The notes under the pieces: generated by a model
What the model was told of the DNA's origin: nothing
What the model saw: only the letters and a program-made list of their open reading frames with translations
Database searches by the model: none
Shown here: positions 820-6,334 of the stretch, piece after piece
Position numbering within the stretch: the stretch's first letter is position 1
Layout: each line of letters opens with the position of its first letter
Translations under genes and position numbers: made by a program
Source: a virus
DNA: 19,865 nt
UHGV virus genome: UHGV-1448388
Strand: one strand, 5' to 3'

Positions 820-1743
820 TCAGTAGTTATGTACTGAAGGAGGTAATTCTTTATTCTTAAGTCTCATCCATGCGGAAAGATTCGTTGGTCCGTCTGGCTC
901 ATTAATATCAACATCTCGTGTATGGTTGATTAAAACATCTCTCGCCATTCCGATAACATACGAGAATTCATGACCGTAGTCGTAGCATCTGCCGGAATAG
1001 TTCGATTGAATTTGTTTTAGCGCCTGATACAGTTCGCGGAATAATGCCTGTGAGCGGTTGGCATAATCCCATAGCCATACAAGGCTGTTTACTTCTTTTG
1101 CAGAAAGCTCGTTGGTTTTCTTCTCTTGTTTGCCAATGAACTCACCTTCAAGTGGAACTCGAGCTGCAAGTGATAGTGCTTCGGTAAACTGCTCCTCACT
1201 GATTTCTTTGTACGAACATCCAAAATGGGATTTCAGTGACGACCACATGGTGATCATCGCCTTAGCCTGTTTTTCTTTTGGCAGAGACTGACCGCGACTC
1301 ATGACGAGTTGTTTAATGGCTTCCTGCTGTTCAGTGGTGATTTTACCCTGCAACGCCTTTTTAGCTTTGCGTGGGTTAACTACATGGCCTTTAGTCCAGT
1401 ACTCGTAGAGCACATCGTCACACTCTTCCTGATACTGGATTACCTTGTCGCGGATTTCAGGGCGGACTTTGTTAGGACTGATGCTGTTCAACCAAGCTGC
1501 CAATTTTCGTAAAGCCATACAAATCATGGCTTGCACCCCACCGGCAGAAGGTATGGTGATTTCCACCATACCATTCGAGAATCGTTGAGAAATCTTCTTA
1601 TGTTGAGATTTCCAGTCTAGCCCCATTCCCTCAACGATAGGTTTCATTGGGGTATACGGTTCGCCGTTGTGATTGACAACATAAAGCTCTGCGCCGTGGA
1701 ATGGTACATTGATAGTAGATACTGCTGTTGCTATACTTTTCAT
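820..1743 (-). CDS. ant: Antirepressor Ant (AntA/AntB-type N-terminal domain)
   Basis: 307-aa ORF. N-terminal motif HNGEPYTPMKPIVEGMGLDWKSQ...IQYQEECDDVLYEYWTKG is characteristic of the phage antirepressor family. Position downstream of arc and upstream of the tailspike matches the P22 immI layout. AGGAA Shine-Dalgarno upstream. Confidence 0.7.
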   Translation of the reverse strand: MKSIATAVSTINVPFHGAELYVVNHNGEPYTPMKPIVEGMGLDWKSQHKKISQRFSNGMVEITIPSAGGVQAMICMALRKLAAWLNSISPNKVRPEIRDKVIQYQEECDDVLYEYWTKGHVVNPRKAKKALQGKITTEQQEAIKQLVMSRGQSLPKEKQAKAMITMWSSLKSHFGCSYKEISEEQFTEALSLAARVPLEGEFIGKQEKKTNELSAKEVNSLVWLWDYANRSQALFRELYQALKQIQSNYSGRCYDYGHEFSYVIGMARDVLINHTRDVDINEPDGPTNLSAWMRLKNKELPPSVHNY

Positions 1744-1806
1744 GTCGTTAATTCCTATGCGTGGTTTTACGATACCGAAGCCCTGACTGTTCCCGCAGTT
1801 GGGGCT

Positions 1807-2010
1807 TCAACTTTCTGCTCTATCAGTTATATCTTTCCCTTCGTATACTTCACCTATATTGCTAATGCTGGCAGAACATCCAAGATGCTTGTATCTTATG
1901 ATGTCCAACACGCAGTCACTACACAGCATCCGACCTGTTTCTTTAGAGTAAATGTATGTTTGATCAGCGTCTGATTCGCTAATGCCGCAGAAACAACATT
2001 CTTTACTCAT
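1807..2010 (-). CDS. Small Cys4 zinc-ribbon-like protein (67 aa), hypothetical
   Basis: ORF with CxxC (C5, C8) and CxxC (C30, C33) pairs. Strong GAGGGGG Shine-Dalgarno about 7 nt upstream. Its ATG overlaps the arc stop codon (ATGA), implying translational coupling. Confidence 0.45.
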   Translation of the reverse strand: MSKECCFCGISESDADQTYIYSKETGRMLCSDCVLDIIRYKHLGCSASISNIGEVYEGKDITDRAES

Positions 2011-2147
2011 ACCATCACCCCCTCTCTCTTCAAGCTGTCCAGCACCCGTTTAATTACTTCTGCGCTAAACGATCGACACTCTTCCTTTGCTTTCTCTTCA
2101 AGGATTTTTTCTAACTTCTCTGGCATACGCAGTGTTTTTACCTTCAT
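2007..2147 (-). CDS. arc: Arc-like ribbon-helix-helix repressor (46 aa from the internal ATG)
   Basis: MKVKTLRMPEKLEKILEEKAKEECRSFSAEVIKRVLDSLKREG has the beta-strand plus two-helix RHH layout and a size similar to P22 Arc. GGAGGA Shine-Dalgarno 5-6 nt upstream of the ATG at 2147. The longer 68-aa ORF-track version would run through the promoter region. Confidence 0.6.
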   Translation of the reverse strand: MKVKTLRMPEKLEKILEEKAKEECRSFSAEVIKRVLDSLKREGVMV

Positions 2148-2252
2148 TGCATCCTCCGCTGTATGTGGTACGCATACATAGTATTTAGGTACGCATTGAT
2201 AGTCAATAGACACCTACATATCCTGTGGTAAAAAATTATTCAGGGTGTGCCG
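2148..2252. promoter_or_regulatory. Divergent immI-type promoter/operator region (candidate back-to-back sigma70 promoters with repeat elements)
   Basis: Plus-strand candidate: -35 TTGATA (2196-2201), 17-bp spacer, -10 TATCCT (2219-2224). Minus-strand candidate: -35 TTGACT (plus 2201-2206), 17-bp spacer, -10 TACTAT (plus 2178-2183). The two -35 hexamers lie within the palindrome ATTGA-tag-TCAAT (2195-2207). Direct repeats GGTACGCAT at 2167-2175 and 2188-2196 (21 bp apart), and TGTGGTA at 2164-2170 and 2224-2230. Confidence 0.45.
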
Positions 2253-2510
2253 ATGTCTGATCGTAAGTACAAAAACCCTCAAGTGAATCTGAGGCTTCCT
2301 GTAGAGATAAAGGAACGTCTTATTGAACTGGCTGAGGCTAATTCTCGTTCATTAAATGCTGAGATGGTCGCTGCACTTGAAGCATGGACCGAAAAAAATA
2401 AACACATTCAAGCACTAGACCTTGCAACTATAGCATCACGATTGATAGATCTTGAACATGATGTTGAGAAGTTGAAATGCATGTATGGCAACAATAAAGA
2501 CGAAAGTTAG
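2253..2510 (+). CDS. Ribbon-helix-helix DNA-binding protein (Mnt/Arc family paralogue, 85 aa)
   Basis: ATG at 2253; the ORF-track start is a GTG two codons upstream. NPQVNLRLPVEIKERLIELAEANSRSLNAEMVAALEAW fits the RHH beta-strand/helix/helix pattern. AGGGTG Shine-Dalgarno-like sequence upstream. Confidence 0.6.
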   Translation: MSDRKYKNPQVNLRLPVEIKERLIELAEANSRSLNAEMVAALEAWTEKNKHIQALDLATIASRLIDLEHDVEKLKCMYGNNKDES

Positions 2511-2533
2511 AGATACTAACTTGGAGTGATGGC

Positions 2534-2782
2534 ATGGCTAGAGATGATCCGCACTTTAACTTCCGTATGCCTTTGGAAGTAAGAGAAAAATTGAAATTAA
2601 GAGCCGAGGCTAACGGAAGGTCAATGAACTCTGAGTTATTACAAATCGTTCAGGATGCGCTATCAAAACCATCACCGATTGCAGGTTACCGTGACGAAGC
2701 AGAACGTATGGCTGATCAGCAAGCAGAAATTGTTAAGAAGATGGTGTTTGAAACCCTGAAAAAAATGTACGAGACCAGATAG
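2534..2782 (+). CDS. mnt: Mnt repressor (ribbon-helix-helix)
   Basis: 82-aa product MARDDPHFNFRMPLEVREKLKLRAEANGRSMNSELLQIVQDALSKPSP... closely matches P22 Mnt as I recall it. GGAG Shine-Dalgarno 7 nt upstream. Transcribed opposite to arc-ant, as in P22 immI. Confidence 0.85.
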   Translation: MARDDPHFNFRMPLEVREKLKLRAEANGRSMNSELLQIVQDALSKPSPIAGYRDEAERMADQQAEIVKKMVFETLKKMYETR

Positions 2783-2824
2783 GTCAATGTTTGTTCGTTG
2801 ATATAAAATAACAAGGTATACATT

Positions 2825-3424
2825 GTGATTGAGATAGGCGTTATGGCCATCCTGAATCAAGAGCCAGGAAAAATTGAAAACGTTTTTTCTGACATATCAA
2901 CATCTATCGAGCGTTCAATTTCAGACTTTGATCGCAGTCATAGCGGCTCTTTGTCTAAAAAACAGGCTTCTGAAGCTCTTAGCAAGATCTACTGCGTTAT
3001 GTCACCTGTAGAGGAAGTTTGCAAAAAGTACATTACATTCATTGACATATTAAGTAATGGTACAGAAGAAGATATTTCCTCACTTAATATTCAACATGAC
3101 GATGTAGATATGTTGAACGATCAGATATCTAAGCTTGATTATGGTATCGCGAAACTGTTGTATACCTTCTTCATCGCTGAGAACAGCGATGCGTGGAAGC
3201 CCCATATGTCAACTCTTACAACAATGAAAAACCACTCAATCAATACTTTTATAGAATACAAAAGGCTAACAATGGGGCTTGTGACGCTAGCAATGCAGCA
3301 CATACCACTATCATATGCTGAACCTGAAGAGTTCACTGAAGAAGAGTTGGCTTCCTTCAAGAAATCAGTTGAAGATTCACATAAAAGATTTGGCATGGAA
3401 GCACCAAAATGGAAAACCGCATAA
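2825..3424 (+). CDS. Hypothetical acidic protein (199 aa; possibly 193 aa from ATG 2843), first gene of an AT-rich accessory cassette
   Basis: Intact ORF in AT-rich DNA. Start is GTG at 2825 (AAGG 8 nt upstream) or ATG at 2843. The 3' end overlaps the next gene by 16 nt. Acidic composition; no family I recognise. Confidence 0.5.
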   Translation: MIEIGVMAILNQEPGKIENVFSDISTSIERSISDFDRSHSGSLSKKQASEALSKIYCVMSPVEEVCKKYITFIDILSNGTEEDISSLNIQHDDVDMLNDQISKLDYGIAKLLYTFFIAENSDAWKPHMSTLTTMKNHSINTFIEYKRLTMGLVTLAMQHIPLSYAEPEEFTEEELASFKKSVEDSHKRFGMEAPKWKTA

Positions 3425-3828
3425 GCATTGTTGTAGATGCAGCGGCTGGACCATTAGAACAATACTTTGCGAAGGCTCTTGCAAACTACAAAAACAGAGG
3501 CACCGTTTCAGCTTATCTTGGTAAGATTGGTGGGTTTGAGAGAAACCATCACGCCGTCTTATCGGGAATTTACAAGTCGCACATCAGGATCCCTGGAGTA
3601 GATGATCCTTGGTTAAGAACAACGCCAATACATCGTAGAGTTAGCGATAACTTTTTGATATTTGCGGTACACAACACATATCCAATTCATATCCAGATCA
3701 TTGCTATCATTAAACCTGATGGTCATGAGAAGGTAAAAAAACTATTGCCAGCCATCATTGATATAACTGAAAAAAGATTCCAATCTCTAAATGAGAGGGA
3801 GCTTAACTCGTTGATTTCATACAAATAA
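3409..3828 (+). CDS. YafO-family toxin-like protein (139 aa)
   Basis: Motifs ANYKNRG, FERNHHAVL and NFLIFAVHN...IHIQIIAIIKPDGHEK...EKRF align with E. coli YafO (FISYKRDG, FERVAHIHL, AHLVYCQG...AWLLIAILKPEPHK...AEAFRMRF) as I recall it. Basic protein whose start overlaps the upstream acidic ORF. Confidence 0.55.
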   Translation: MENRISIVVDAAAGPLEQYFAKALANYKNRGTVSAYLGKIGGFERNHHAVLSGIYKSHIRIPGVDDPWLRTTPIHRRVSDNFLIFAVHNTYPIHIQIIAIIKPDGHEKVKKLLPAIIDITEKRFQSLNERELNSLISYK

Positions 3829-3850
3829 AATATCAACTAAGGGGGTTGGT

Positions 3851-4174
3851 GTGTATACAACAGTTATCGCGATAGCTATCGCACTCATTGTGGTTCAGTA
3901 CCAACTGGCATCTTTAAAACAAAAGATATCTGACCTCAAGACTGAGAACGAAGCACTTAAAAACTCAATAAAAGATGAGAAGAACAAACTATCATTCACT
4001 ATATCTGATATTGAGCAATCCATTGAAATTATTGAGAATAATATTAACAGATTAAAAAAAGAAGATATTCATGAAATCAATGACAATATCAAGGATTTGA
4101 AATCTTGGCTTAGGAATGTAGGACAAATCGCCACATCAACACGAGATAAGCTCAATACATCCATGGATGATTAA
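3851..4174 (+). CDS. Small membrane-anchored coiled-coil protein (107 aa), hypothetical
   Basis: GTG start with strong AAGGGGG Shine-Dalgarno 5 nt upstream. N-terminal hydrophobic helix YTTVIAIAIALIVVQYQLA, followed by a K/E-rich heptad-like coiled-coil. Very AT-rich. Its stop codon abuts the gp16 stop codon. Confidence 0.5.
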   Translation: MYTTVIAIAIALIVVQYQLASLKQKISDLKTENEALKNSIKDEKNKLSFTISDIEQSIEIIENNINRLKKEDIHEINDNIKDLKSWLRNVGQIATSTRDKLNTSMDD

Positions 4175-6334
4175 TTACTCCTGTGCCATTCCGCTTAGCG
4201 ACGCTACAATGCCAGCCCTCGCTAAGCGATTGAACTCTTCGTTTCCAACTGCATCGCGTATTGCTTTTACGGCGGCTTTATTTGCCATAAATCTGCGTTC
4301 CGCCGCCGCTAATGCTTCTTTACTTCCGCCAGCTCTTACTGCTTTCGTGGCTTCCTGAACTGCTTTCTCTATCGCATACCGACCACTACGTGTGGTGGCA
4401 ATTTTAGATACAGCACCTTTTAGCCCGGCGCCAACTAAAGCACCTGCGGCAGCGCCTGCAATGCCCCCTCCTGCTCCACCAACAATGGCACCTGATGTTG
4501 AATTGGCAATTGCATTTAACACTGTTGATGTGACGTTGGATAAACCGGCATCCAGATCGCGTAGTACATTGGCAGTTCTCCCTGTTCTTTCAATATACTG
4601 CTGAGGTTTCACTGCTGCTCTTGCAAGAGTGCCATATGCATCTGCAATTCTTCCAAGCTCTGAGGAATATCGGCTAATGGCTTTTACATTTTGTGGAGTG
4701 AGTATCTCTGCGATATGGTTAATTCCTGCTGCATCAGCTTTACCACCACGTACACCATGCGAGATAGCATCTTGCAACATTGATGATATAGCAGGAACAC
4801 GCTCTGATTCTGGCAGCGCGCGGATCATAGAATGGAATCCAGCAGGACCATTAAGACCTTTAGCTGACGATGATTGAAGGGATTTTACTCCATTCGTAAT
4901 CAGTGCATCTGTTGCCAAATCACGCCCGAAAACAGACTCTGCACTCTCTTGTGCTGATAACCTCGCTTTAGACAGATCATTAGCTTTTTGCCAGTCATCA
5001 AGAAATCCGCCGTTTTCCGCCATTGTGCGCATATCATCAGTAATTGCCCGGCGTATTTCCCCTGCTCTCCTTGCCGCATTTGCCTCTCCGCTACGCTTAT
5101 ATTTTTGCTCCGCATCAGCAAATTTCGCTCTCCATGCTTTCATGCCGTCAAATGTTACTCCACCTTGATTGTTTGCCTGAACAAACTGTTTCATTTCAGG
5201 AGTAAGCGGTATGCCGGCAGATCGCTCTGCCTGAATAACGGCATTACCATTTAGCATTCTTGCTTTTTGATTTGGCATTGTTGACCGCACGTCATCCCAT
5301 GCCGCGCGCTCGGCATCCTTCATCTGATCAAGATTTTGAAGAATCCTTTGTTTTATAGCCGCACTTTTTTCTGATGCCGTTCCAGATGCGGCCCCAAATT
5401 CATCAAGGTTTCGACTTAACTTTGATGATATTTCGTTAAATGCTGCCTGATGGGCGTCCTGAACAATTCCTGGTGTTGATGCCAATGCGCCTTCGGCTTG
5501 TGCAATTCCACGACTTCCAGATCGCATTCCTGGTGTTAATGCGTTTATATCAATTCCAGCAGACTCAGCCGCTTTTGCTACATCTTCGGACACATTAGCG
5601 GCCTGACTGGCAATTGACTGACGCCCAGCACCTGACTTTGCCATCCTAGAAACATCATTAGCAGAATTCAGTGCTGCACCACCAAGAGCCTGTGAAACCC
5701 TTGGCGCAATAACGCGCCCGACACCTGAAAGAACGCCTTGAGCACCAATATTGATACCACCGTTAATGGCAGCATTTTGTGCAAAGTCGCCCTCCTGATT
5801 TGCAGCATCAGCAAGAGAACCTGCAATCATGTTTCCGGCGGAACCGATATCTCCAGCGAGCTTTGCTGTCGCTCCAGCAGCTTTTGCCGCTGTGCCAATT
5901 GGCAGGAGATACCCACCAATTGTTTCACCGGCTTGCGCGTAAGGGTCTGTCGGTCGCTCGGCAGGGCGATAAACATCATCCAAAACCTTGGGGCCGCCAA
6001 GCCCCTGGCTGATTGCATTAATCAGACTTGCGCCACCCTGCAATACGTCAAATGGTATGTTTACCAGACCACGACCAGCCTGTTCTGCAATTTGCCCTGC
6101 ACTTTGACCACCTGTGAGCCAATCACCAGCTTGTTGCATCAATGATGGTTCTTCTTTCTGCTGCTGAGGCGGAGGGTATGCTGCATAAAACTGATCTCTT
6201 GCTTCAGCCCATTTGTCACCAGCCTTAGGGGCAACAACCTCATCAAAATATTGCGCTTGAGCCTGTGCTTTCTGTTCTTCAGTTAACGCCTGATACTGTG
6301 GAGAAGCGATAACATCTTTCCATGCTTTAGCCAT
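4175..6334 (-). CDS. DNA ejection (injection) protein, P22 gp16-like
   Basis: 719-aa ORF in the gp16 position after gp20. Ala/Gly-rich with low-complexity segments. Start overlaps the gp20 stop (TAATG). Confidence 0.7.

Follow-up and report, generated by a model that had tools for sequence, protein, structure and literature searches.

Does a gene for a YafO-like protein that is not paired with YafN, the antitoxin encoded beside yafO in E. coli K-12, belong to a toxin-antitoxin (TA) unit, and if it does, what stands in the antitoxin's place? The question is raised by two overlapping genes at 2825-3828, here called the cassette, in the window analysed, which is the whole 19,865-nucleotide stretch of virus genome UHGV-1448388. 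Positions 2200-4300 are 100% identical to Enterobacteria phage CUS-3 (CP000711.1), a P22-like (Lederbergvirus), K1-specific prophage of E. coli RS218. The same stretch is 100% identical to prophages in UTI89, IHE3034, NU14, APEC O18 and other strains.

The downstream gene (3409-3828, plus strand, ATG start) was found exactly where the first-pass annotation had placed it, and encodes a 139-aa protein with a pI of 9.65. The resemblance to YafO that had been proposed from shared motifs was borne out by a Pfam profile search, in which PF13957 (YafO_toxin) was matched at E 3.2e-11 with 43.6 bits against a gathering cutoff of 25, over profile positions 2-98 of 101. PF13957 was matched by 13/13 sequences of the subfamily, the best at E 1e-39. 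An HMM of the toxin subfamily retrieved K-12 YafO at E 2.5e-8, and hhalign of the subfamily profile against K-12 YafO, the reference sequence being taken from NC_000913.3, gave a probability of 91.8% (E 7.5e-7, 96 columns). An alignment of 13 sequences, K-12 YafO among them, shows no variation at seven residues (H58, R77, D80, L83, P103, H106 and E121). BLASTP against YafO was not significant (E 0.028, with an approximate YafO sequence), so the similarity exists at the profile level only, and the NCBIfam YafO equivalog NF007377 scored 13.9 bits, short of its curated cutoff of 153. Judged by these profiles, the 139-aa protein is a member of the YafO_toxin family and not an orthologue of K-12 YafO. 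RefSeq names it 'type II toxin-antitoxin system YafO family toxin' (WP_000431541.1), and the original GenBank record labels it hypothetical. Because the RefSeq name is already in place, the YafO-family call is correct but not new, and novelty is confined to the partner. PF13957 is counted among the BECR-fold RelE/ParE mRNase families, in which the gene order is antitoxin and then toxin (PMC11980606); whether YafO itself depends on the ribosome is contested (PMC8546651). A search of PADLOC-DB v2 with the toxin homologue returned no match, and searches of PDB sequences with both cassette proteins and with the family profiles returned nothing meaningful.

The upstream gene (2825-3424, plus strand, GTG start) encodes the 199-aa protein ORF199 and was confirmed to overlap the toxin gene by 16 nt (3409-3424, plus strand) in another frame, an arrangement of translational coupling. 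It had also been suggested that this partner carries no recognizable antitoxin or DNA-binding signature, and that view was upheld: no match was obtained in Pfam, including its antitoxin domains, in NCBIfam or in PDB sequences, and hhalign found the family profile to be unrelated to YafN (probability 1.7%). In PADLOC-DB v2 there was only a weak, insignificant match to PtuB1 (E 0.0043, 14.8 bits). The RefSeq entry (WP_000569748.1) reads 'hypothetical protein', and phrog_18235 is the only PHROG assignment. ORF199 is acidic (pI 4.99), and its predicted model is all-helical, with bundle helices at residues 14-37, 45-78, 91-119 and 125-157, a low-confidence acidic linker (158-171), a C-terminal helix (172-188) and a tail ending in SHKRFGMEAPKW. 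No DNA-binding domain was detected by sequence searches or in the predicted model, and the fold, a plain helical bundle, gave no enzyme-like match. Within the family, the motif IERSISDFDRSH shows no variation among members as little as 27% identical; P0035 and P0037-P0040, distant members paired with YafO-like proteins, lack it. The motif AE-x4-W-x-P-H is present in nearly all members, the most distant ones included. When 1.84 billion representative proteins were searched exhaustively with HMMER, no more than 18 clusters were recovered; the family is real but rare. An imperfect palindrome at 2807-2830 overlaps the ribosome-binding site and start codon of ORF199 (AATAACAAGGTATAC / GTATACATTGTGATT), and a palindrome of different sequence is similarly placed in the cassette of X. 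szentirmaii (L006 3389-3412). The palindrome at the ORF199 start may act as an operator or as a translational hairpin, or may have arisen by chance.

Around the cassette, the local gene layout is that of a canonical immI region. The ant gene (820-1743, minus strand) is followed by the sar antisense RNA (1745-1812, plus strand; Rfam RF00262, 84.6 bits against a gathering score of 43), which is of the canonical P22 immI type and is unannotated in the CUS-3 record. Next come arc (about 2007-2147, minus strand) and two tandem Arc/Mnt-family repressor genes on the plus strand, identified with the Pfam Arc and Repressor_Mnt profiles: an 87-aa gene at 2247-2510 and a second at 2534-2782. The cassette lies between mnt and hkcB (3851-4174, plus strand, 107 aa), adjoining mnt, and the minus-strand ejection-protein genes 16, 20 and 7 lie beyond hkcB. 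As the first-pass annotation had stated, the only ribbon-helix-helix (RHH) genes nearby are the three immI Arc/Mnt genes; the two plus-strand ones stand directly upstream of the cassette, on its strand, and outside the cassette proper. They probably supply the transcription that enters it in the lysogen. P22 and epsilon34 have one such gene where CUS-3 has two in tandem. The Repressor_Mnt C-terminal domain is found in the second tandem gene only; the 87-aa protein resembles Arc at its N-terminus and differs in its C-terminal half. Between arc and sar/ant, a 67-aa Cys-rich ORF (1807-2010, minus strand) with two CxxC-like pairs (CCFCG...CSDC) overlaps the arc stop by 4 nt at its start. It has no Pfam match and no gene is annotated for it in GenBank or RefSeq, where the GenBank label for the region is 'bsq2 boundary sequence'; a small membrane ORF of another kind occupies the position in L015. 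From mnt to hkcB (between 2782 and 3851), prediction gave no terminator-like site.

In HkcB a hydrophobic segment at the N-terminus precedes a coiled coil, and the hkcB gene has the lowest GC content of the region (0.33). As a third component of the cassette hkcB was ruled out: it adjoins gene 16 in HK620, epsilon34 and SEN22, all of which are devoid of the cassette, and it is missing from all other cassette loci. Comparison with epsilon34 (L003 2788-3240) sets the bounds of the CUS-3 insert at about 2790-3835. The epsilon34 site is occupied by an unrelated lipoprotein gene (gp15) on the opposite strand; this gene matches the YafO-like gene in length (420 nt) and site, was considered as a relative on those grounds and was rejected. 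The interval from mnt to gene 16 holds ORF199 and the YafO gene in both CUS-3 and L015. In P22, it is sieA that adjoins mnt, and sieA is expressed in the prophage (PMC10883804). Given the different cargo beside mnt (the CUS-3 cassette, the epsilon34 lipoprotein gene and P22 sieA), the stretch between mnt and gene 16 is a moron hotspot of variable content.

Genomic context was available for 18 lineages of the ORF199 family, in which all ORFs were classed by HMMs of three families. In 18/18 lineages a partner gene directly follows the ORF199-family gene on the same strand. The spacing ranges from -16 to +4 nt in the 17 cassettes that could be measured, the 18th running off its contig, and the 16-nt overlap of CUS-3 recurs in L015 and in the Pectobacterium and Xenorhabdus cassettes. 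This synteny holds down to about 19% identity within the ORF199 family. Every cassette encodes an acidic ORF199-family protein (pI 4.6-6.2), usually with a basic partner; several distant pairs are exceptions, their toxins having a pI of 5.5-6.2. Carriers of the cassettes include prophages with three types of tail; on Xenorhabdus and Pectobacterium chromosomes they lie in housekeeping intergenic regions with no other ORF of note. A repressor gene stands directly upstream on the same strand in seven cassettes, namely mnt in the window (CUS-3), L015 and L004, the latter two loci having a single mnt, and a cI-like HTH+S24 repressor in prophages L016, L017, L028 and L034. In L018, L019, L020 and L033 the cassette is placed among tail or baseplate genes. 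Scans for promoters, terminators and palindromes upstream of the chromosomal cassettes returned nothing above background. One locus (L030 632-1479) is an eroded cassette with an intact ORF199 homologue and a YafO-like gene shortened to 68-78 aa. The genes for ORF199 and its partner are conserved as a tightly coupled pair that moves horizontally as one unit.

The partner is not the same protein in every lineage, and its identity follows the C-terminus of the ORF199 homologue. Homologues with the CUS-3 type of tail (type 1, '...SHK.xG..P.W'-stop) have a YafO-like PF13957 partner in 12/12 lineages, a class in which toxin identity falls to about 34-43% and ORF199 identity to about 19%. Homologues with a type-2 tail ('...P.WV.SGDDFV.W') are followed in 6/6 lineages by an unrelated 125-135-aa protein, so tail type and partner type are concordant in all 18 of the 18 lineages, as expected if the tail is the partner-binding segment. 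The type-2 partner belongs to phrog_5954 and is mostly basic; its genes lie at L004 2065-2457, L016 3618-3998, L017 3618-3995, L026 3121-3498 and L032 3116-3493, and the motifs LPGRNKPSTGVS, HYH.G, FGDWTS and HPP are invariant. It had no match in Pfam or NCBIfam. As a distant relative of YafO it was tried and rejected, the hhalign probability being 0.1%, and 0.4% with larger profiles. The phrog_5954 proteins are a candidate new toxin family. The C-terminus of YafN (...DDDFNDFK; L021 1506-1799) is superficially like the type-2 tail (...SGDDFVKW), and hhalign paired exactly these two segments, at a level that is not significant (E 0.03, probability 1.7%). A literature search found no description of the ORF199 family or of a CUS-3 TA module; the family, its two tail classes and the phrog_5954 partner are undescribed in the curated libraries and literature searched.

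The cassette was found intact, at 99% identity or above, in 44 of 5,426 complete E. coli genomes, and a species-genome scan by narrow alignment recovered five loci in 185,579 genomes. A tblastn search of 72,556 plasmids with ORF199 returned no match, and given this absence from plasmids an addiction role is unsupported. Both genes are under purifying selection, with dN/dS of 0.08-0.16 in unsaturated pairs; the toxin gene spans 0.08-0.22.

We consider it probable, with some reserve, that 2825-3828 is a self-contained type II-like TA moron, in which a YafO-type RNase is held by a tail-bearing antitoxin of a new kind, expressed in the lysogen and likely serving in defence or stabilisation. The 139-aa protein would be a divergent YafO-family (RelE/ParE-superfamily) endoribonuclease that shuts down translation by cleaving mRNA. 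Translationally coupled ORF199 is most likely the antitoxin and would be of a new kind: a helical bundle of ~155 residues, an acidic flexible linker and a C-terminal helix ending in a conserved Trp-containing tail. This tail may wrap and block the toxin in the manner of the C-termini of RelB, YefM and DinJ, and the bundle could act in sensing or oligomerisation. Since no DNA-binding domain is present in ORF199, we infer that in CUS-3 the cassette is expressed by read-through from the mnt promoter, which is active in the prophage, so that it would be co-transcribed with mnt. For the same reason, classical autoregulation is left unexplained, especially for the chromosomal copies. Of the features expected in a type II system, the tightly coupled bicistronic pair that moves as a unit between contexts is present; an antitoxin whose DNA-binding domain autoregulates the operon is not, and at 199 aa ORF199 is unusually large for an antitoxin. 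The recurrent placement behind repressors and the sieA-like position beside mnt suggest a role during lysogeny, which could be to stabilise the prophage or to defend the cell through abortive infection or against superinfection; defence of either kind is the most speculative step of the proposal. The PADLOC-DB defence models gave no convincing match for the cassette.

Other readings of the same two genes were weighed. The pair might be a dedicated two-protein phage or prophage function outside TA biology, in which the RNase is a regulated effector and ORF199 its activator, targeting subunit or sensor, acting for instance in turnover of host or competitor mRNA or as an anti-defence factor. The size, folding and strong conservation of ORF199, its lack of the DNA-binding domain typical of antitoxins, and the overwhelmingly phage-borne location of cassettes at moron sites, with none on a plasmid, are all compatible with such a function. 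Set against them are the classical TA signature of gene order, tight overlap, acidic/basic pairing and stand-alone chromosomal insertions, the exchange of C-terminal tails with partner type, as expected for a binding or neutralising segment, and the eroded locus L030, which keeps the partner and loses the toxin; we regard this reading as unlikely. Within a TA framework, ORF199 might instead neutralise its partner by a route other than sequestration, either enzymatically, through a type VII-like modification, or by promoting degradation of the toxin. Such a route would use the conserved residues E29/R30/D34/D36/R37/H39 and W124/H127, and the invariance of IERSISDFDRSH to 27% identity and the near-universal AE-x4-W-x-P-H motif speak for it. 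It appears improbable, since IERSISDFDRSH is missing from the distant YafO-paired members named above, the plain bundle has no enzyme-like match, and the concordance of tail and partner favours direct binding.

A different assignment of roles would make the neighbouring 87-aa Arc-like RHH protein (2247-2510) the true antitoxin and ORF199 a passenger. RHH proteins are common antitoxins, and CUS-3 has two Arc/Mnt genes in tandem against the one of P22 and epsilon34. However, no RHH gene is near the Xenorhabdus and Pectobacterium cassettes, and this absence from the chromosomal cassettes excludes the neighbouring RHH protein as the antitoxin; L015 and L004 have only a single mnt, and an ORF199 homologue stands beside the toxin in every locus. 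We hold this assignment to be very improbable. Least credible of all is that the YafO similarity arose by chance in an AT-rich ORF and that the genes are functionally unrelated, a caveat entered when the similarity was proposed. The insignificant BLASTP result, obtained with an approximate YafO sequence, and the NCBIfam equivalog score of only 13.9 bits can be cited for it, but the Pfam E-value of 3.2e-11, the PF13957 matches of 13/13 members and the hhalign probability of 91.8% effectively refute it, and a dN/dS of about 0.1 also stands against it.

Beyond the preferred reading of a type II-like TA moron lies a broader proposal, which we put forward tentatively and regard as possible but doubtful. 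The ORF199 family might be an undescribed modular antitoxin or sensor scaffold with swappable tails that serves at least two effector families, the YafO-type RNases and phrog_5954, in repressor-linked, prophage-expressed systems of abortive infection or superinfection defence, where the bundle would sense a cue from an invading phage and release the toxin.

If the TA reading is true, ORF199 would provide a new antitoxin family for YafO-type toxins, which are often reported in prophages as 'orphan' or 'YafO toxin alone' (PMC10449497) and for which 92% of the partner clusters in E. coli are unknown (PMC10790755). It would also flag phrog_5954 as a second, wholly uncharacterised candidate toxin family, and it would place a candidate lysogen-expressed defence module beside mnt, where P22 has sieA. 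For TA biology the advance would be incremental, as many new antitoxin families are now emerging for known toxins. CUS-3 is the prophage that O-acetylates the K1 capsule in strains from ExPEC, neonatal-meningitis and UPEC backgrounds such as RS218 and UTI89, and the cassette is easily testable in this well-studied, clinically relevant pathogen background.

Among known systems, the closest point of reference is yafN-yafO of K-12. Like the cassette, it is bicistronic and tightly spaced with the antitoxin gene upstream, and its toxin belongs to PF13957 with conserved H, R, D, H and E positions. The two toxins are 16% identical in alignment, and that of CUS-3 has a C-terminal extension of ~13 residues ('...LNERELxxL') that K-12 YafO lacks. 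Their partners, the 199-aa helical bundle of CUS-3 and the 97-aa YafN, are unrelated, and the CUS-3 cassette is borne on a prophage whereas yafNO sits in the SOS dinB operon of K-12. In position, the cassette resembles P22 sieA, which also lies beside mnt, with no kinship in sequence or fold. Other repressor-linked, prophage-expressed exclusion or defence genes include lambda rexAB, downstream of cI, and BTP1 bstA. Cassettes directly downstream of a cI-type repressor on the same strand are placed like such genes, again with no kinship in sequence or fold.

The exchange of partners recalls PanA/DUF4065, for which Kurata et al. 2022 and Ernits et al. 2023 reportedly described modular, 'hyperpromiscuous' antitoxin domains. 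There, as proposed for ORF199, a single conserved scaffold is combined with toxins of unrelated families, and variation falls in the part specific to the toxin; ORF199 differs in having no match to DUF4065 or any other Pfam family, and in an observed repertoire of just two partner families and 18 clusters. The toxins of RelB/RelE, YefM/YoeB and DinJ/YafQ are BECR-superfamily mRNases, a group in which PF13957 is also listed (PMC11980606). Their antitoxins carry an N-terminal RHH or Phd-type DNA-binding and dimerisation domain, in place of which ORF199 has a four-helix-bundle N-domain with no detectable DNA-binding fold. At the other end of the protein there may be a likeness: the C-terminal helix and extended tail of RelB, YefM and DinJ are thought to wrap the toxin, and the C-terminal helix and tail of ORF199 may do the same.
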